Shown: piece after piece, positions 6,278-48,015 of the stretch
How the letters are laid out: every line of letters starts with the position of its first letter
Position numbering within the stretch: position 1 is the stretch's first letter
DNA from: Escherichia coli
Lineage (GTDB): Bacteria > Pseudomonadota > Gammaproteobacteria > Enterobacterales > Enterobacteriaceae
Length of the DNA stretch: 64,000 nucleotides
NCBI RefSeq assembly: GCF_013315695.1
Contig: NZ_CP054353.1
Reading direction: 5' to 3' (one strand)
Position numbers and translations under genes: made by a program
Notes under the pieces: generated by a model
What the model was told of the DNA's origin: nothing
Databases searched by the model: none
What the model saw: the letters and a program-made list of their open reading frames with translations, nothing else

Positions 6278-7930
6278 TTACGCGCTCAACAGTTGCTTCA
6301 TGTCTTCTTCAACAGTGGTGATAGAACGCAGGCCGAATTTCTCGTTCAGCACCGCCAGCAGGTCTGGTGTCAGGAAACCAGGTGCAGTCGGGCCGGTGAC
6401 GATATTTTTCACACCCAGAGAAAGCAGCGTCAGCAGAATGACAATCGCTTTCTGTTCAAACCAGGAGAGCACCAGCGACAGCGGCAGATCGTTGACTCCG
6501 CAGCCCAGTTTCTCTGCCAGCGTTACCGCCAGAATAATTGCTGAGTAAGCATCGTTACACTGACCAGCATCTACCAGACGCGGCAGACCTTCGATATCGC
6601 CAAACTCAAGTTTATTAAAGCGATATTTACCGCAAGCGAGGGTCAGGATCAGGCAGTCATCCGGCACGCTGGTGGCGAAATCGGTGAAGTAGTGACGCTC
6701 GCCGCGTGCGCCGTCACAGCCGCCAAGCAGGAAGATATGACGCAGTTTTTCACGGCTCACCAGATCAATCAGCGTATCGGCTGCGCCAAGCAGTGTCTGG
6801 CGACCAAAGCCCACGGTGATCAGGTGCGGAATTTCGCTGTACGGGAAGCCCGCCATCTGTTGCGCCTGGGCAATGACCGCAGAGAAATCTTCGCCATCCA
6901 GATGACGCACACCCGGCCAGCCAACGATGCTGCGGGTCCAGATACGATCGTCATAAGCGCCTACGGTTGGGTCGATGATGCAGTTTGAGGTCATCACGAT
7001 GGGGCCAGGGAAACGAGCGAACTCCACTTGCTGATTCTGCCAGCCGCTGCCGTAGTTACCGACCAGATGCTTGAATTTACGCAGCTCCGGGTAACCATGC
7101 GCAGGCAGCATTTCGCCGTGGGTGTAGACATTAACGCCCGTGCCTTCTGTCTGTTCCAGCAGGTTGTAGAGATCTTTGAGATCGTGACCGGAAATCAGAA
7201 TGCATTTACCCGCCGTCGCTTTGACGTTGACCTGGGTTGGCGTCGGGTGACCGTATTTACTGGTTTCGCCTGCATCCAGAATGCTCATCACTTTGAAGTT
7301 CATCTGGCCGATTTCCATTGAACACTCAAGAAGCGCGTTCATATCGGCAGGCCAGGTCCCCAGCCACGCCATGATTTTATGGTACTGGGCATAAATATCA
7401 TTGTCGTATTGACCGAGAACGTGTGCGTGTTCCATATAGGCCGCCGCACCTTTCAGGCCATACAGGCACAGCAGACGCAGGCCGAGAATGTTTTCGCCAA
7501 TCGCCGCTTTATCTTTGTTAGGGGTAAATTCTGCTGCCTGACGTTGCAGCTCGCCGAGATCGTCGCTCACCAGTTGCAGGTCAGCCATCGGGTTATCGAC
7601 GCGGGCGTTGGCATCTACAGCCAGGCAGTGTGCTTTCAGCGCCTCGCGCAGGGCAATCGCTTCACGAGCGTAGCCGACAATACGCGGAGAATCGAAGTTA
7701 ACGTTGGTCAGGGTTGAGAAAAAGGCACGTGGCGCAAAGCTGTCTACATCGTGGTTGATGATGCCGTATTCACGCGCTTTTACCGCCCAGGCCGAAAGCC
7801 CTTGCAGCGCCGCGATGAGTAAATCCTGAAGGTCAGAGGTTTCCGCCGTTTTACCACACATCCCCTGCGCGTATGAGCAGCCGTTTCCTGCCGGAGTACG
7901 GATAGTTTGTTCACATTGCACACAAAACAT
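6278..7930 (-). CDS. hcp: hybrid-cluster protein (hydroxylamine reductase)
   Basis: ORF 6278..7936; N-terminal MFCVQCEQT cysteine motif; ~550 aa. Confidence 0.9.
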
Positions 7931-13397: not shown

Positions 13398-13516
13398 CGC
13401 AGTGAGGTGCGTGGTTATTTCATTGGGTTAGGCCAGATAAGACACGCCAGCGTCGCATCAGGCATGGTGCACCGGATGTCGGATGCGGCGCGAACACCTT
13501 ATCCAGGGCAATAGTT
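13398..13516. repeat. REP/BIME-like palindromic units in the yohF-yohD intergenic region
   Basis: gccagataagacacgccagcgtcgcatcaggca and ccggatgtcggatgcggcgcgaacaccttatccagg resemble E. coli REP consensus. Confidence 0.55.
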
Positions 13517-15996: not shown

Positions 15997-17712
15997 TTAC
16001 TCCACTTCCTGCCAGTTTTTCCGCTTACTGGTTTTACCGATCCCCGGATTCATACTGTTGGTCGGATCGTTCTCGCGATAGAACTTCTGCAACGTCTCCG
16101 GTGCTTTATACAAATGACCGACGTTATGCTCGGCAGGGTATTGCGCGCCGCGCTGCTGCAGCAGTTCCAGCATCTGTTCTTTCAACGCATGCACATCCAC
16201 GCCTTTTTTCACGATGTAATCCTGATGGAAGACATAGCACATAAAATGGCCGTAATAGAGCTTGTGCACCAGCTGGCTGTCGATCTCCGGCGGTAAATGC
16301 TCATACCATTCGGTGTCGTTACGCCGCAGAGCGATATCCAGCGCCAGAATGTCTTCGACTTCATCGGAATGCACAGCCTGATAACGAATTGCTGCGCCCG
16401 CAGCGGCGAAACGGTGTAAAAACGCTTTGCTGCCTTCCTCCGGCGTACAGACAAAGAAATCGCCCTCGGCCTGTTTGAAATAATCCACCAGCCACGATTT
16501 GGCTTCACCGACGCCATCGCCCGCCATTTTTAACAGCAGATGATGCTCGTATTTATCGCGCCAGTTTTTCATGCGTGGCGGTAAATGGCTGGGGAACAGG
16601 TGACCGAATTTTTGCATTGCACGGTCGGTAAAATGCGGACGGAAGAATTTCACTTTCTCCAGCATCGCATCGGTGCGTCCCTTGAGATTAAAGAAGAACG
16701 GCATCTTGTCGGTGCCTAACTTATCAATCATCAGGAAGGTGTCTTTGCCGTATTTTTCCGCAATATCGTAGATATCCCGGTGCATATATTCCCCGGCAAC
16801 CGGCAAATTTTCGAAATTAGCCAGAATATGACGGCGGATTTCGGTCAGCACTTCCGGCTGGTTGGTGCCGATATAAAACACCTGCTGATTTTTTTCCGCT
16901 TCGAAGGTATCAAGACGTACCGCAAAGACGGCCAGCTTACCTGCGCAACCAGAAGATTCAAATAACCGATCCGGATCAGCGTTATAACGTGCGGGCGTGT
17001 CGGCTTCAATATCACGAACGCGGTGGACATAGTCATAATCGTGGGCGTGACGACCATCGTGGCGCACATCGTCATCTTTGATGCGATCGTCATCCAGCTT
17101 GCTAAGGATCTGCTCCGGCGTTTCGCCCAGATCAATCCCCAGATGGTTAACCAGCGTCAGCTTGCCATCTTCATTTATACGCGCGAATAACGACATTTCG
17201 GTATACGCCGGGCCACGTTGCACCAGCGAACCACCAGAGTTATTACAGATACCGCCGATGACCGATGCGCCTATACACGATGATCCAATCACCGAGTGCG
17301 GTTCGCGTCCCAGCGGTTTGAGGGCTTTTTCCAGTGAATAGAGCGTGGTGCCCGGATAGGCCAGCACCTGTTCGCCCTTGCCGAGAACGTGTAGCTTGTC
17401 GAGACGCAGGGTGCTGATGATCACGATATCGCGATCATAGTCGTTACCGTTTGGCGTAGATCCTTCGGTCAGACCTGTATTGGCGGCCTGCATGAGAATA
17501 ATTTTGTCGGCGGTGACGCAGGCTTTCAGCACCCGCCACAATTCCAGTAGTGAGCCAGGGAAAACGACAGCCAGCGCGTCGCCCTGACCAGAACGGAAGC
17601 CCTTGCGATAGCGGGCCGTTTTTGCGGGATCGGTGAGCAGGTGTGAATGACCGACCAGACGGGCAAGTTCATTCAAAAAGGCTTTATTATCAGTTGTTGT
17701 CATGGAAGACAT
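15997..17712 (-). CDS. dld: FAD-dependent D-lactate dehydrogenase
   Basis: ORF 15997..17745; likely start MSSMTTTDNKAFLNELARLVG at 17712. Confidence 0.9.
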   Translation of the reverse strand: MSSMTTTDNKAFLNELARLVGHSHLLTDPAKTARYRKGFRSGQGDALAVVFPGSLLELWRVLKACVTADKIILMQAANTGLTEGSTPNGNDYDRDIVIISTLRLDKLHVLGKGEQVLAYPGTTLYSLEKALKPLGREPHSVIGSSCIGASVIGGICNNSGGSLVQRGPAYTEMSLFARINEDGKLTLVNHLGIDLGETPEQILSKLDDDRIKDDDVRHDGRHAHDYDYVHRVRDIEADTPARYNADPDRLFESSGCAGKLAVFAVRLDTFEAEKNQQVFYIGTNQPEVLTEIRRHILANFENLPVAGEYMHRDIYDIAEKYGKDTFLMIDKLGTDKMPFFFNLKGRTDAMLEKVKFFRPHFTDRAMQKFGHLFPSHLPPRMKNWRDKYEHHLLLKMAGDGVGEAKSWLVDYFKQAEGDFFVCTPEEGSKAFLHRFAAAGAAIRYQAVHSDEVEDILALDIALRRNDTEWYEHLPPEIDSQLVHKLYYGHFMCYVFHQDYIVKKGVDVHALKEQMLELLQQRGAQYPAEHNVGHLYKAPETLQKFYRENDPTNSMNPGIGKTSKRKNWQEVE

Positions 17713-42691: not shown

Positions 42692-42767
42692 GGCCCTTTA
42701 GCTCAGTGGTGAGAGCGAGCGATTCATAATCGCCAGGTCGCTGGTTCAAATCCAGCAAGGGCCACCA
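42692..42767 (+). tRNA. tRNA with CAU anticodon (Ile2/Met-type; ileZ-like)
   Basis: Cloverleaf GGCCCTT-TA-GCTCAGTGGTGAGAGC..anticodon loop TTCATAA..GGTTCAAATCC..AAGGGCC-A-CCA. Confidence 0.85.
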
Positions 42768-42774
42768 TCACATA

Positions 42775-42851
42775 CCGCCATTAGCTCATCAGGATAGAGC
42801 GCCAGCCTTCGAAGCTGGTTGCGCGGGGTTCGAGTCCTCGATGGCGGTCCA
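42775..42851 (+). tRNA. tRNA-Arg (anticodon UCG; argN-like)
   Basis: Acceptor CCGCCAT/ATGGCGG, anticodon loop CTTCGAA, T-loop GGTTCGAGTCC, encoded CCA. Confidence 0.8.
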
Positions 42852-42864
42852 TTATCTGTACCCT

Positions 42865-42941
42865 GCGTTATTAGCTCAGCCGGACAGAGCAATTGCCTTC
42901 TAAGCAATCGGTCACTGGTTCGAATCCAGTACAACGCGCCA
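42865..42941 (+). tRNA. tRNA-Arg (anticodon UCU; argO/argU-like)
   Basis: GCGTTATTAGCTCAGCCGGACAGAGC..anticodon loop CTTCTAA..GGTTCGAATCC..CGCCA, close to host argU. Confidence 0.8.
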
Positions 42942-42954
42942 GACTTATTTTTCC

Positions 42955-42980
42955 CGGCTCGCTTTTGCGGGCTTTTTTTT
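42955..42980 (+). terminator. rho-independent terminator after the tRNA cluster
   Basis: gctcgc-tttt-gcgggc hairpin followed by eight T. Confidence 0.7.
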
Positions 42981-43433
42981 AAATGTCTCACAATTCAGAC
43001 GGTTGACAGTTGTCTGTTTTGCGGGGAGTTTGTTAAAAGAAACTGGCATGGTGAATCCCCCTGTGCGGAGGGGCAATCAGCAACTGGTGTTTTGTCACCG
43101 ACCCTTATCCTTTCTGTGCGGGTTCAGGTGCTGATACTGAACTCACCGGGAGGCACCCGGCATCATGTGCATGATGATACAGATACGCGGCTTTAGCCCC
43201 TCTCCGGAGGGGCTTTCTTGTGGGCAAAAAAAAGCCCGAGTGGGTTCGGGCAACAGCATGAGATATACATTTTTATAATCGAATGGATTTTAACCAGAAT
43301 TCATAAGGCTGCGCAACTGCGCGGTCTTTTTCGAATTGCGGGCTGTCGTCTCTCTTCTGCCATTGTCCTGTAACTTCCGGACTTCAGCCCGCTCCTTATT
43401 TTACTCACAATATTATCCCGGCCGGGAGGATTC

Positions 43434-45395
43434 ATGGCATTTAAACACTATGACGTGGTCAGGGCGGCATCGCCGTCAGACCTTGCGAAACGACTGACAC
43501 AAAAACTGAAGGAGGGGTGGCAGCCATTTGGCAGTCCGGTGGCCATCACGCCTTATACCCTGATGCAGGCCATTGCGGCGGAAGGTGATGTCACCACACC
43601 TGTGGTGGTGAAGCCGTCGGATGGAGAAGGCGCAGTTATCAGCAACACCAGCAACCCGGAGTATTACTTTGTTGTTGCCCTGGCCGGGCAGTCAAACGGT
43701 ATGGCGTATGGTGAAGGGCTTCCGCTGCCGGAGACATATGACCGTCCGGACCCGCGTATTAAACAGCTGGCGCGTCGCAGCACTGTCACGCCGGGTGGTG
43801 CGTCCTGTAACTACAATGACATTATTCCTGCGGACCACTGCCTGCATGATGTTCAGGATTTGAGTAAGTTTTCACACCCGAAAGCCAGCGCAGCTCAGTA
43901 TGGATGCGTGGGGCAGGGATTACATATCGCGAAGAAATTGTTGCCGTTTATTCCGGCGAATGCCGGTATTCTTCTGGTTCCGTGCTGCCGTGGTGGTTCT
44001 GCATTTTTGGCGGGCGATGAAGGTACCTTCAGCGAATCCACCGGCGCAAGCGAGACCTCGGCACGCTGGGGTGTAGATAAGCCACTGTACAAGGACCTGC
44101 TTACCCGTACTCAGGCCGCACTGAAGGCCAACCCTAAAAATATTCTGCTTGCAGTGGTCTGGATGCAGGGCGAGTTTGATTTGAAACAGGGTGCATACGC
44201 CACTCAGCCGGGGCTGTTTGATTCCATGGTGGAAAAATATCGTTCTGACCTGTCGGAATTCGGAGGTCAGTGTCTCGGGGGCTCTCCGTCATCAGTTCCC
44301 TGGATTTGTGGCGACACGACCTACTACTGGAAGCAGACTTATTCTTCGCAATACGATGCGGTGTATGGTGCATATAAGACGAAATCCGCAAAAAAAATCT
44401 TCTTTGTGCCGTTTATGACGGATGAAAACGGGCGAAATGTGGGTACCAACGAGCCGTCAGAAGATCCGGATGTTGCGGATATTGGGTATTACGGAGCCGG
44501 TGGTCGAACGGACGCCAAAACCTGGACGACGGCTGACCGTAAAACGCATTTTGGATCATGGGCACGTCGTGGGATTATTTCCGACCGTCTGGCAACGGCG
44601 ATTCTTGTGCATGCCGGGAGAACCGCTGAATTCATTACCGGAAAACAGCCTGATACGGTGAAGCCCACCGGACCTTCCGGTGAAGGTACGGAGAGAGAGC
44701 CGGAAGGTCCGGTCAGTAACCGAACCCTGATGAGTCTGCTGGCGTCCGGCGAAGACCTGGCATCACAGGGCTGGCGCTATTATCACAAACCGGCGAGCGG
44801 AGACAATGTTAACAAAAACATTGCTGAAGCGGTGGTCAGTGATGCGGGGGCTACGGGAGGTAAGGCCCTGCAACTGAATAAACCGGAAAACCACATCTGG
44901 TTTCTGGAGCATGATGCAGCCGGGCAGGGGGCAGAGTTGCTGAAGAAAGGAGGACGTGTGAGCGTACGGTTTAAGTTGCCGGGTTCACTGGTGCCGAATC
45001 AGTTTGCCCTGGGCATTTACTGGCAGTTGTCGTCCCTGCCGGAGGGAGTGACGCTGGCAGAGGAAGGCAACGACATGCTGATGTCCTTCTTTCTGCAGAC
45101 GGATGCGACGAACCTGAACGCGATGCACCACAAGAAGCCGAATGCGAAGCTGGAAACGTTCGGGGTCTTTGATAACGGATGGCACACACTGGCTTTTGAG
45201 TTTGCCGGAAACAACAGCATTCAGGTGACGCCGGTACTGGATGAGAAACGGGGGACGCCGTTCACACTGGTGAAATCTCCGGCATCAGGGGCGGCGGACA
45301 AACTGCAACTGACAGGCATATCAAAGGCGGCGACATATACGCTGCTGATTGACAGTGTGAAGGTGGAAGTGAACAACGCGGATGCCGCGGCATGA
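43434..45395 (+). CDS. nanS-p: prophage sialate O-acetylesterase (NanS-p-like)
   Basis: 653-aa ORF; position and sequence recalled as the esterase found downstream of stx in Stx phages. Confidence 0.65.
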   Translation: MAFKHYDVVRAASPSDLAKRLTQKLKEGWQPFGSPVAITPYTLMQAIAAEGDVTTPVVVKPSDGEGAVISNTSNPEYYFVVALAGQSNGMAYGEGLPLPETYDRPDPRIKQLARRSTVTPGGASCNYNDIIPADHCLHDVQDLSKFSHPKASAAQYGCVGQGLHIAKKLLPFIPANAGILLVPCCRGGSAFLAGDEGTFSESTGASETSARWGVDKPLYKDLLTRTQAALKANPKNILLAVVWMQGEFDLKQGAYATQPGLFDSMVEKYRSDLSEFGGQCLGGSPSSVPWICGDTTYYWKQTYSSQYDAVYGAYKTKSAKKIFFVPFMTDENGRNVGTNEPSEDPDVADIGYYGAGGRTDAKTWTTADRKTHFGSWARRGIISDRLATAILVHAGRTAEFITGKQPDTVKPTGPSGEGTEREPEGPVSNRTLMSLLASGEDLASQGWRYYHKPASGDNVNKNIAEAVVSDAGATGGKALQLNKPENHIWFLEHDAAGQGAELLKKGGRVSVRFKLPGSLVPNQFALGIYWQLSSLPEGVTLAEEGNDMLMSFFLQTDATNLNAMHHKKPNAKLETFGVFDNGWHTLAFEFAGNNSIQVTPVLDEKRGTPFTLVKSPASGAADKLQLTGISKAATYTLLIDSVKVEVNNADAAA

Positions 45396-45546
45396 TAAAA
45401 AAAGGCCGCCAGCAATGAAGGAAAGGGATGAACTGTGTCCACTACATGAATGCTGGCGGCTGGTAAAACGACCACGATGACACCGAAGTTTGCGATATTT
45501 TTCTACAAAAATAAGTAAATCATGTCAACTATCACGGTGAGAAACC

Positions 45547-45729
45547 ATGACATTTCTGAACCAGTTAATGCTGTACTTCTGTACGGCAGTCTGTGTTATG
45601 TATCTTCTTTCGGGTGGGTACAGGGCAGTGCGCGATTTCTGGCGCAGGCAGATTGATAAAAGGGCCGCTGAGAGAATCAGCGCCAGTCAGTCAGCCGGAA
45701 GCAAACCCGAAGATCCGCTCATTCCGTAG
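45547..45729 (+). CDS. small hydrophobic protein
   Basis: 60-aa ORF with one predicted TM segment, upstream of the lysis cassette. Confidence 0.35.
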   Translation: MTFLNQLMLYFCTAVCVMYLLSGGYRAVRDFWRRQIDKRAAERISASQSAGSKPEDPLIP

Positions 45730-45766
45730 TCACTTTCTTGACAACACCTTTCAACGAGAAAATCCC

Positions 45767-46036
45767 ATGTCAGAAATCACATCCCTGGTCACTGCTGAGG
45801 CAGTGAAGGAAGTCCTGCGCTCTGAAGAAGTCCTGAGCGCACTGAAACAGAAACTCCGCCAGAACCTTGAGGCGCGTCTTGATGCAGAAGTGGATGCCAT
45901 TCTGGATGAGCTGCTGGGCGTACCAGCGGTTCCGGAGCCGGAAGGCATTGCGGATGACAGTACTGTTTCAGATGGCGTCGGGTCTCAGCCTGACGGTAGT
46001 GAAGAGCCTCAGCCTGACGGCGAAATGATGATGTAA
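45767..46036 (+). CDS. acidic hypothetical protein
   Basis: Internal start MSEITSLVTAE of ORF 45593..46036; highly acidic C-terminus. Confidence 0.4.
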   Translation: MSEITSLVTAEAVKEVLRSEEVLSALKQKLRQNLEARLDAEVDAILDELLGVPAVPEPEGIADDSTVSDGVGSQPDGSEEPQPDGEMMM

Positions 46037-46111
46037 CCATGCGCAGGGGGTGTCGGTGTGAGCTGATGCCCCACTTGTTGTTGTGAGCTTCCGGATTGCG
46101 GGAGACGGGGT

Positions 46112-46327
46112 ATGTACCAGATGGAAAAAATCACAACAGGTGTGTCATACACCACGTCAGCGGTGGGAACGGGCTACTGGTTCCTGCAGTTGCTGGACAG
46201 GGTTTCCCCGTCTCAGTGGGCGGCAATAGGCGTGCTGGGGAGTCTGCTGTTTGGGCTGCTGACATATCTGACTAACCTGTATTTCAAAATCAGAGAGGAC
46301 CGGCGTAAGGCGGCGCGGGGAGAGTAA
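46112..46327 (+). CDS. holin (phage-21 S-type pinholin)
   Basis: 71-aa [46 protein letters not shown]..., two TM segments, charged C-terminus; recalled as S21 family. Confidence 0.85.
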
Positions 46328-46328
46328 A

Positions 46329-46682
46329 GTGATGAATAAAAAATATGAACTGGTTGTTAAGGGGATAAATAATTACGGGGATAAGGTTACTGTTACTGTG
46401 AAGCCGGAAGGTGACGGGCAAGCGTCGCTGTTGTTGCCAGATGTGGCGATTAGTCTTGACCGTACTGAAGGTGCCACGCTGGAGTTTTACGAAGCTGAGG
46501 CGAAAAAGCAGGCGAAGCAGTTTTTCATGGATGTTGCTGCCGGGTTATGTGAAGGGGATGGTCCGTTGCCGGAAAAGCGCCCCGTAATTTTAGAGGCGCA
46601 GGATGTGTTGATAACCTACAAAGGAAAGCTACCGGGAAGAATTACTGGTTCTCTGAAGACTCCACCGGAATCACAACCTTAA
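46329..46682 (+). CDS. hypothetical protein inserted between holin and endolysin
   Basis: 117-aa hydrophilic ORF starting 1 bp after the holin stop. Confidence 0.5.
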   Translation: MMNKKYELVVKGINNYGDKVTVTVKPEGDGQASLLLPDVAISLDRTEGATLEFYEAEAKKQAKQFFMDVAAGLCEGDGPLPEKRPVILEAQDVLITYKGKLPGRITGSLKTPPESQP

Positions 46683-46745
46683 TTCACTGACCGGAACAGA
46701 TAAACCTGTCCGTGGGCAGAAACCGATAAATCCTGATAAATATCC

Positions 46746-47279: not shown

Positions 47280-47370
47280 GCAGAATATTTTGCTGAAAAA
47301 TAAGGCATGGCCACGCGGGCGGATAACACGAAATCCTGCGAACTGGCGAAACGTAAGTGAATAAAAGTAA

Positions 47371-47410
47371 AAACCCCGTTTGTTGGCACCAAGCGGGGTT
47401 TTGTGTTTCC
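47371..47410 (+). terminator. strong stem-loop with U-tract inside the lysis cassette
   Basis: aaaccccgtttg-ttggcac-caagcggggttt followed by tgtgttt. Confidence 0.5.
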
Positions 47411-47438: not shown

Positions 47439-47576
47439 GTGTTTGATTTTAGCAAACTGATTCGGGAGATTCGAGTGATGGCTGAAAAATTATCCACCTG
47501 GAAGTTCATTCTTATCTGGCTGGTGTTTGTGATTATGGCCTCCGGTTATTTCATCGGTCAGATACGCTGGTGGTGA
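47439..47576 (+). CDS. small membrane protein (45 aa from GTG, or 32 aa from ATG at 47478)
   Basis: AGGAG RBS 9 nt upstream of GTG; product ...MAEKLSTWKFILIWLVFVIMASGYFIGQIRWW; stop overlaps the Rz start. Confidence 0.4.
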   Translation: MFDFSKLIREIRVMAEKLSTWKFILIWLVFVIMASGYFIGQIRWW

Positions 47577-47577
47577 A

Positions 47578-48015
47578 ATGAACCGCGTACTGTGCGTGGT
47601 CATCATTGCCCTGCTGGTGGCCTGTGGTGCGCTTAGTCTGGGGCTGAATCATTACCGTGATAACGCCATGACCTACAAAGAGCAGCGCGATAAAGCCACA
47701 TCCATCATCGCTGATATGCAGAAGCGTCAACGTGATGTAGCAGAACTCGACGCCAGATACACAAAGGAGCTTGCTGATGCTAACGCGACTATCGAAAGTC
47801 TCCGTGCTGATGTTTCTGCTGGTCGTAAGCGCCTGCAAGTCGCCGCCACCTGTGCAAAGTCAACGACCGGAGCCAGCAGCATGGGCGATGGAGAAAGCCC
47901 AAGACTTACAGCAGATGCTGAACTCAATTATTACCGTCTCCGAAGTGGAATCGACAAGATAACCGCGCAGGTTAACTACCTGCAGGAATACATCAGGACG
48001 CAATGCCTGAAATAA
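47578..48015 (+). CDS. i-spanin Rz
   Basis: 145-aa ORF with N-terminal TM and coiled-coil periplasmic domain; Rz1 embedded. Confidence 0.8.
   Translation: MNRVLCVVIIALLVACGALSLGLNHYRDNAMTYKEQRDKATSIIADMQKRQRDVAELDARYTKELADANATIESLRADVSAGRKRLQVAATCAKSTTGASSMGDGESPRLTADAELNYYRLRSGIDKITAQVNYLQEYIRTQCLK
47771..47962 (+). CDS. o-spanin Rz1 (lipoprotein) embedded in Rz in the +1 frame
   Basis: Lipobox LVVSAC followed by a proline-rich segment; fully inside Rz. Confidence 0.7.
   Translation: MLMLTRLSKVSVLMFLLVVSACKSPPPVQSQRPEPAAWAMEKAQDLQQMLNSIITVSEVESTR

Follow-up and report, generated by a model that had tools for sequence, protein, structure and literature searches.

A YdfR-family (DUF1327) gene as optional cargo between the pinholin and endolysin genes of an Escherichia coli prophage lysis cassette

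The open reading frame that separates the pinholin gene (S) from the SAR-type endolysin gene (R) in the 64,000-nucleotide stretch of Escherichia coli DNA analysed here (the window) is, judged from its sequence, a genuine member of the YdfR/DUF1327 family, which already has a name. The gene is not part of the lysis machinery but optional cargo. What is established is its family identity, its position, the geometry of its start site, the fact that it is optional and does not covary with S or R, and the existence of relatives outside lysis cassettes. What the protein does is more tentative, and we give a probability of roughly 0.35–0.4 to the reading that it modulates the turnover of RNA that depends on host RNase E, late in lytic growth. 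Because the family is already named and the gene lies in its usual place, the finding as such is already known.

Identity, start codon and neighbourhood of the gene

The ORF list of the window confirmed a plus-strand ORF at 46329..46682, which comprises 117 aa when counted from a GTG codon, and sequence reading placed this GTG 1 nt past the holin stop codon (TAA, 46325-46327), as stated in a preliminary description of this DNA. What did not hold in that description is the start codon. An in-frame ATG at 46332 gives a 116-aa product, and because this is the start that RefSeq assigns to an identical copy and that all homologues share, the true ydfR start is most likely the ATG at 46332 and not the GTG at 46329. 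The GGAG core of a Shine-Dalgarno-like element, GGGGAGAG (46317-46324), lies 9 nt 5' of this ATG. At the other end, the distance to the endolysin gene, previously given as 64 bp, was measured as 63 nt. The flanking genes are as described earlier, a P21-type holin by Pfam, a phage lysozyme with a Gly/Ala-rich N-terminal segment and then Rz/Rz1 (Table 1).

The product matched the Pfam family DUF1327 (PF07041) over residues 2-113 with 140.8 bits (gathering cut-off, 25; E 1.7e-41), and nothing else consistent was found in Pfam at E <= 10. Its PHROG matches (406, 1085, 2091, 2735 and 34145) are all labelled "unknown function", no NCBIfam model matched it, and a profile search of PDB sequences returned only a chance match (eL18, E 0.41). 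At the DNA level, the ORF is 100% identical in E. coli MS7163, where RefSeq names the product "YdfR family protein" (WP_001037011.1), and the 1,251-bp cassette has 99.9% identical counterparts in prophages of E. coli MS7163, S88 and others, in which the three genes are annotated as "class II holin family protein", "YdfR family protein" and "lysozyme". The claim that the ORF bears no resemblance to known lysis proteins is correct in that no family member is a characterised lysis protein and no lysis-annotated homology was found in Pfam, PHROG or NCBIfam; novelty at the family level could not be upheld, as DUF1327/YdfR is present in RefSeq and K-12. A chance ORF is ruled against by the match to a curated family, by a frame that is uninterrupted in every one of the 50 ydfR genes extracted (one from the window and 49 from IMG/VR loci, with 33 distinct sequences among them), and by a dN/dS of ~0.32 between the two N-domain allele classes (dS ~1.2); among close ydfR alleles, dN/dS was 0.5-0.85 on small counts. 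No second DUF1327 copy was found within the window. A 58-aa ORF overlaps ydfR in another frame (46411-46587, +). Homologous loci, those of the divergent allele class among them (54 aa in L027), likewise keep this frame open, which probably follows from composition and sequence conservation.

The MS7163 prophage that carries the identical ORF is lambdoid, with an antiterminator Q gene, three tRNA genes, a nanS-p-like esterase gene, DUF1378 and DUF826 genes, the lysis cassette and lambda-like head and tail genes. In the window, the region from the tRNA genes to the holin gene (42692-46036) resembles the equivalent part of the antiterminator-Q-to-holin region of a Stx phage, without stx.

Table 1. 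Features of the window in and around the S-R junction
Feature	Coordinates	Strand	Evidence
tRNA-Met/Arg/Arg	42692-42941		
nanS-p-like esterase, 653 aa (DUF1737 + SASA + DUF6645)	43434-45395		
DUF1378 gene	45547-45729		
DUF826 gene	about 45767-46036		
Phage-21-type class II holin (pinholin) S, 71 aa, two possible starts (Met1, Met4)	46112..46327	+	PF04971 "Bacteriophage P21 holin S", E 9e-33; PHROG holin; RefSeq "class II holin family protein"
Shine-Dalgarno-like GGGGAGAG in last S codons, serving whichever gene comes next	46317..46324	+	Sequence reading; junction shared with other phages
Alternative GTG start of the ydfR-family gene	46329	+	Would yield 117 aa
ydfR-family gene (DUF1327), 116 aa + stop	46332..46682	+	PF07041, E 1.7e-41; 100% identity to WP_001037011.1
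Conserved N-domain, residues 1-75, acidic	46332..46556	+	AF2 pLDDT 89.4; 47% identity to K-12 YdfR residues 1-78; family alignment
Variable C-terminal module, residues 76-116, basic (pI 9.4), ends ESQP	46557..46679	+	Alignments; AF2 pLDDT <50; pI
Spacer, 63 nt	46683..46745	+	RNA fold z -0.82; no terminator-like site
Conserved R leader GAAACCGATAAATCCTGATAAATATCC, without Shine-Dalgarno; candidate right border of the cargo slot	46719..46745	+	Comparison of cassettes
Endolysin R, 177 aa, lysozyme family, Gly/Ala-rich SAR-kind N-terminal segment	46746..47279	+	PF00959, E 3.1e-24
Rz spanin	47578..48015	+	PF03245, E 7.5e-37
Rz1, embedded in Rz	47771-47962	+	ORF list

Presence, absence and borders of ydfR at the S-R junction

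Among 5,426 complete E. coli genomes, holin gene DNA was found in 4,295, at 13,414 places, and ydfR DNA in 3,158, at 6,730 places, i.e. about half as many places as for the holin gene; the ydfR count is a lower bound because divergent alleles were only partly detected. A holin of this type is encoded in 434 records of the GenBank phage collection, and a YdfR homologue in 101. The YdfR-carrying phages include Stx1a and Stx2c phages, H-19B, BP-4795, YYZ-2008 and mEp460, and YdfR is encoded in only 2 of the 124 records of Stx2a-converting phages with this holin. We also sampled IMG/VR for loci with a holin at least 97% identical to that of the window (80 loci, 76 of them informative), and the gene directly after S was ydfR in 58 of the 76, R in 8 and another insert in 10. 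The expectation that holin and endolysin genes are normally adjacent in such cassettes is therefore not borne out in E. coli, neither by these loci nor by the two place counts. In the eight loci in which R directly follows S, the holin is 100% identical to that of the window in three and 98.6% identical in five, and the functional phage 933W has the same holin and a near-identical endolysin without ydfR. The gene is thus missing from some otherwise equivalent cassettes, as the preliminary description had envisaged, and it is absent from many homologous cassettes of phages that still lyse, which by the terms of that description refutes its reading. ydfR is common yet optional, and it is dispensable for lysis.

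The left border of the junction is nearly constant. Whichever gene follows S starts 4 nt past the S stop codon, or 3 nt past it in two or three IMG/VR loci, and is preceded by a GGAGAG within S; the arrangement GGAGAG, TAA, 4 nt and ATG is common to 933W, in which the next gene is R, and to K-12, mEp460, Tritos and Evi, in which it is ydfR. The junctions read GGGGAGAGTAAAGTGATG in the window (S-ydfR), GAGGAGAGTAATCCAATG in K-12 (S-ydfR) and GGGGAGAGTAAGCTGATG in 933W (S-R), where R itself starts 4 nt past the S stop. On the right, nearly all of the compared cassettes with an insert, irrespective of which one, have a core, CCTGATAAATATCC, directly 5' of R; this core is usually part of a longer leader, ...CCGATAAATCCTGATAAATATCC-ATG, without a Shine-Dalgarno sequence, and is missing from the single direct S-R locus in the leader comparison (L033). 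In a comparison of the window, L033, L037 and 933W, the N-terminus of R read MNAKIRYG or MNTKIKYG when an insert was present after S; at the S-coupled site of direct cassettes it reads MNRKLRYG or MSRKLRYG. Endolysins with and without ydfR differ mainly at residues 2-6 and in a few scattered substitutions, and their N-terminal SAR segment, GLSAAVLALIAAGA, is identical in cassettes of both kinds. The space between the two borders can be empty or contain reverse-strand genes or ydfR, the latter in ten or more length variants. As a lead, we suggest that the S-R junction may be a cargo slot with fixed borders, i.e. an S-coupled start on the left and the conserved R leader on the right.

The same family occupies this slot elsewhere. 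In the cryptic prophage Qin of K-12, YdfR (b1555, P76160) is encoded in the same order, essQ-ydfR-rrrQ-rzpQ, with the same 4-nt spacing after the holin stop; it differs from the window in that the ydfR stop overlaps the R start, whereas the 63-nt spacer separates the two genes in the window. The YdfR proteins of H-19B, BP-4795 and YYZ-2008 are 88-91% identical to the window protein and that of mEp460 is 56% identical, all from the same slot. Upstream, these phages and the Stx1a and Stx2c phages have stx or other cargo that is missing from the window. In the H-19B record (AF034975), the 88.5% identical YdfR ORF in the lysis region (16461-16799) has no feature annotated.

A crude consensus scan of the plus strand found no sigma-70-like promoter between 45300 and 48300, and no terminator-like site was found after the ydfR ORF in the spacer (46683-46745), the fold of which (z -0.82) is not significant. 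G+C content is 0.48-0.55 across the ORF and 0.47-0.58 in its flanks. Because ydfR lacks a promoter- or terminator-like site of its own and has an S-linked start, we regard it as an integral member of the late operon, positioned such that its translation could be coupled to that of S; because it lacks a promoter-like site of its own, we infer that it is expressed from the Q-dependent late transcript, and late only.

Morons of lambdoid phages in the sense of Hendrix and colleagues, e.g. bor and lom of lambda, are autonomous transcription units within a late operon. Like them, ydfR is an optional gene between two conserved late genes, and it has the moron feature of being present or absent between otherwise homologous genomes (933W and the eight IMG/VR loci). 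Unlike them, it has neither a promoter- or terminator-like site of its own nor a G+C contrast, and its K-12 homologue yielded almost no RNA-seq reads in uninduced cells (PMC13232886). With three of four features lacking, we rejected a classical moron. Of the earlier proposal that the gene is a moron hitch-hiking on late transcription, the optional presence and the expression from the late transcript are retained, and the term moron applies only in a loose sense.

Other elements of the cassette were observed in passing. A GC-rich hairpin at 46047-46072 (+), ~40 nt 5' of the holin start and followed by ACTTGTTGTT, has 11 pairs in the terminator-like scan, and the RNA fold of 46040-46085 has a z of -2.8. 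The R-Rz junction contains a 13-bp GC-rich hairpin with a U-rich tail (47370-47402, +; dG -18.9 kcal/mol, z -2.7) and a 45-aa ORF that abuts the Rz start (47439-47576, +; PHROG 6632, unknown function; a hydrophobic stretch by eye). This junction resembles a second variable slot, in which 933W carries ant.

Modular architecture of YdfR and its distant relatives

The window protein has a GRAVY of -0.37 and a pI of 5.2, reading by eye revealed no long hydrophobic stretch that would suggest a membrane segment or signal sequence, and the AF2 model is that of a soluble beta-alpha domain, in agreement with its earlier description as soluble, hydrophilic and non-membrane. The N-domain was modelled with a pLDDT of 89.4 as three beta strands, one short helix and a long helix (beta-beta-beta-alpha), and the full-length model is poor at residues 74-116 (pLDDT <50). 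The window protein is 47% identical to K-12 YdfR over residues 1-78 (E 7e-23) and has no similarity to it beyond; the K-12 protein is 103 aa long with a helical tail, while the 116-aa window protein ends in the basic module, and the two C-terminal parts are unrelated.

In alignments, the family as a whole consists of a conserved N-domain of ~75 residues with interchangeable tails, in forms of 72 to 330 aa. The tail is absent in Evi (72 aa), of the K-12 type in proteins of 103-104 aa, and of the window type, PEKRPVILEAQDVLITYKGKLPGRITGSLKTPP, in proteins of 110-116 aa; the window-type module is extended by a coiled-coil-like segment in proteins of 162-183 aa, and by this segment together with a C-domain of ~160 residues in proteins of 268-330 aa (PHROG 1085; L069, L081, L012 and L010). 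This C-domain had no Pfam match and is also found as a separate gene right after S, without the DUF1327 N-domain (L016, L021). The L069 endolysin gene (R from 4148) has an in-frame stop at codon 88, from which we take it that decay is under way in some cassettes with long ydfR forms. The 116-aa form ending in ESQP recurs with the same spacer, bar 1-2 substitutions, in four loci (L026, L052, L064 and L067) and is found in protein clusters of about 1,000 members; a pseudogene or truncated remnant was rejected on these grounds, and we consider the window copy a standard variant.

An alignment of homologues contains 13 invariant positions (Y5, E6, L7, V9, K10, G11, R44, E46, G47, L50, Y53, E54 and A57), and the window protein has both N-domain motifs, YEL-VKG near the N-terminus and DR-EG-LE-YE-A before and in the helix. 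Across 32 diverse DUF1327 members, Y53 is invariant and Y5, E54 and A57 are nearly so. The DUF1327 family is acidic throughout (median pI 4.8), with conserved D43, R44, E46, G47, E51, Y53 and E54, and this acidity together with the conserved residues would suit a protein-binding surface.

Beyond the E. coli cassettes, a profile search of 1.84 billion cluster representatives gave only 97 matches. Apart from those in Escherichia and Shigella, most are standalone proteins (72-76 aa) encoded by Yersinia, Proteus, Providencia and Pantoea, all of which match PF07041, and the domain is ~30% identical across Enterobacterales, in unrelated positions. In the 12 distant gene contexts examined, DUF1327 genes were located between tail genes M and L, after the tape measure gene, after tail genes K and I, after Rz, just 5' of holin genes, between Q and the holin gene, and upstream of the gene for the small terminase subunit. 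The common denominator of these contexts is a co-oriented slot in the late operon and not the lysis cassette, and the placing of relatives in tail, terminase-proximal and Q-to-holin regions argues against a lysis-specific role.

Nearly all of the distant contexts share a second feature. In 11 of the 12, and in phage Evi, a convergent ORF lies 3-50 nt after the DUF1327 gene and encodes 70-100 aa (once 186 aa); loci with such a partner are among L087-L106 and L006 (Evi) and, in E. coli, L010, L012, L014, L019, L027, L038, L065 and L086. In most of them a GC-rich hairpin separates the two genes, in several it overlaps the DUF1327 stop codon, and that of Evi was scored as an intrinsic terminator of the gene on the minus strand. 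The partners belong to at least five families without detectable mutual homology, all of unknown function. Among 47 E. coli S-R slots with ydfR, the gap from ydfR to R was at least 233 nt in 22, with a reverse-strand ORF in the representatives inspected, and ydfR was alone with an intact ORF in the other 25, the window included. PADLOC defence models matched neither YdfR nor its long forms, and of the partner ORFs most of those tested had no match and one (L019c) had a single marginal match (E 0.0068). We regard the pairing as a regularity without explanation, and as a lead rather than a conclusion.

Possible functions of YdfR

Phage proteins that target RNase E or the degradosome include phiKZ Dip, T7 gp0.7 and T4 Srd, and the interaction surface of Dip is acidic; YdfR is acidic as well. 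K-12 YdfR likewise is a small phage-encoded protein reported to bind RNase E: Gopel et al. 2026 isolated its residues 1-72 in a bacterial two-hybrid screen (PMC13232886). RNase E constructs containing the catalytic N-terminal half interact with K-12 YdfR, Rne(1-598) co-purifies with Strep-YdfR, and DNase-resistant nucleic acid is present in the Strep-YdfR eluate, while overexpression of YdfR causes few transcriptome changes (PMC13232886). The RNase E-binding region coincides with the conserved N-domain of the family, and residues 1-74 are the sole part conserved between the K-12 and window proteins. A literature search on the YdfR family, b1555 and the holin, endolysin and Stx context gave nothing relevant beyond this paper and the supplement of a second one (PMC3879167, below); the literature searched contained no description of a fixed-border S-R cargo slot, of YdfR as a modular protein or of distant DUF1327 genes paired with convergent partners.

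Because the catalytic half of RNase E is the only experimentally supported partner of the family, we propose a mechanism around it. Ribosomes would start at the ATG 4 nt past the S stop, using the Shine-Dalgarno sequence within S, and hence at the site that R uses in insert-free cassettes. As ydfR is most likely promoterless, its product would be made late only, from the Q-dependent late transcript. This product, predicted to be small, soluble and acidic, with an N-domain of 75 residues (beta-beta-beta-alpha) and a basic tail of 40, would act as accessory cargo outside the lysis machinery and most likely bind a host protein through the N-domain. Homology points to the N-terminal, catalytic half of RNase E as the candidate partner, perhaps along with RNA. 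It is to the resulting effect on RNA turnover that the probability of roughly 0.35–0.4 applies.

It is unlikely, by our estimate, that the window gene is instead the orphaned half of a convergent two-gene module, in which DUF1327 would be a late antidote or regulator of a prophage-expressed reverse-strand gene and the partner would have been lost here or act in trans from another prophage. The convergent ORF within 3-50 nt of nearly all distant DUF1327 genes and that of Evi, the usual hairpin, the terminator score of the Evi hairpin for the minus-strand gene and the 22 of 47 E. coli slots that, by gap length, appear to hold a reverse-strand ORF all fit this proposal. However, with partners from at least five unrelated families a specific antidote role is hard to picture, intact ydfR stands alone in 25 of the 47 slots including that of the window, and PADLOC recognised neither YdfR nor, apart from the marginal match, the partners tested. 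A bolder version, in which DUF1327 is the constant late half of a mobile convergent two-gene prophage module across Enterobacterales and switches off or counters a variable, lysogen-expressed reverse-strand partner with a terminator of its own at the lytic switch, perhaps via RNase E or RNA, with the window copy as a solo survivor, seems quite improbable to us.

We give a similarly small chance to YdfR being a regulator of lysis timing. Soluble lysis regulators are encoded beside holin genes, e.g. P1 LydB, and SAR endolysins have regulators such as the Mu gp25 releasin. Made together with the pinholin, YdfR could delay or sharpen its triggering, either in the manner of LydB, as a soluble antiholin, or by holding the SAR endolysin in check. 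It can be likened to LydB and gp25 as a small non-membrane protein encoded beside the holin gene in a cassette with a SAR-type endolysin, and in the E. coli loci inspected ydfR immediately follows S, in a position suited to translational coupling. In the supplement of Paradis-Bleau et al. 2014, moreover, the K-12 ydfR deletion mutant is given as CPRG-positive, i.e. envelope-leaky (PMC3879167), a screen that is cited in PMC13232886. However, ydfR and the endolysin gene rrrQ overlap at the start of the latter, so that this leakiness may be a polar effect caused by read-through from the kanamycin cassette into rrrQ. Further against a regulator, and in contrast to LydB and gp25, YdfR matches no lysis-annotated PHROG or Pfam family, is optional alongside a holin that can be 100% identical and an unchanged SAR segment, and has relatives outside lysis cassettes, in tail and terminase-proximal regions. 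YdfR also lacks a membrane segment, and functional phages such as 933W do without it. The suggestion of a lysis regulator in the preliminary description is therefore unsupported.

Finally, a purely cis-acting role, in which any insert would alter the endolysin-to-holin ratio by taking R away from the S-coupled start and placing it behind a leader that has no Shine-Dalgarno sequence, and the protein would be irrelevant, would account for R standing at the coupled start only in direct cassettes and behind the CCTGATAAATATCC leader in nearly all insert-bearing ones compared, but is highly improbable given an ORF that is open in all 33 distinct DNA sequences with dN/dS <1, a domain conserved at ~30% identity across Enterobacterales in unrelated positions, and the K-12 cassette, in which the ydfR stop overlaps the R start (ATGA) so that R is still coupled.

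The seemingly extra gene of this cassette thus belongs to a named family that is present in most complete E. coli genomes (3,158/5,426) and in K-12, and it does not add a new component to lysis. YdfR is among the commonest E. coli prophage genes without an assigned function, for which RNase E binding provides an experimental lead, and the near-constant pairing of distant DUF1327 genes with convergent small genes deserves a dedicated survey.
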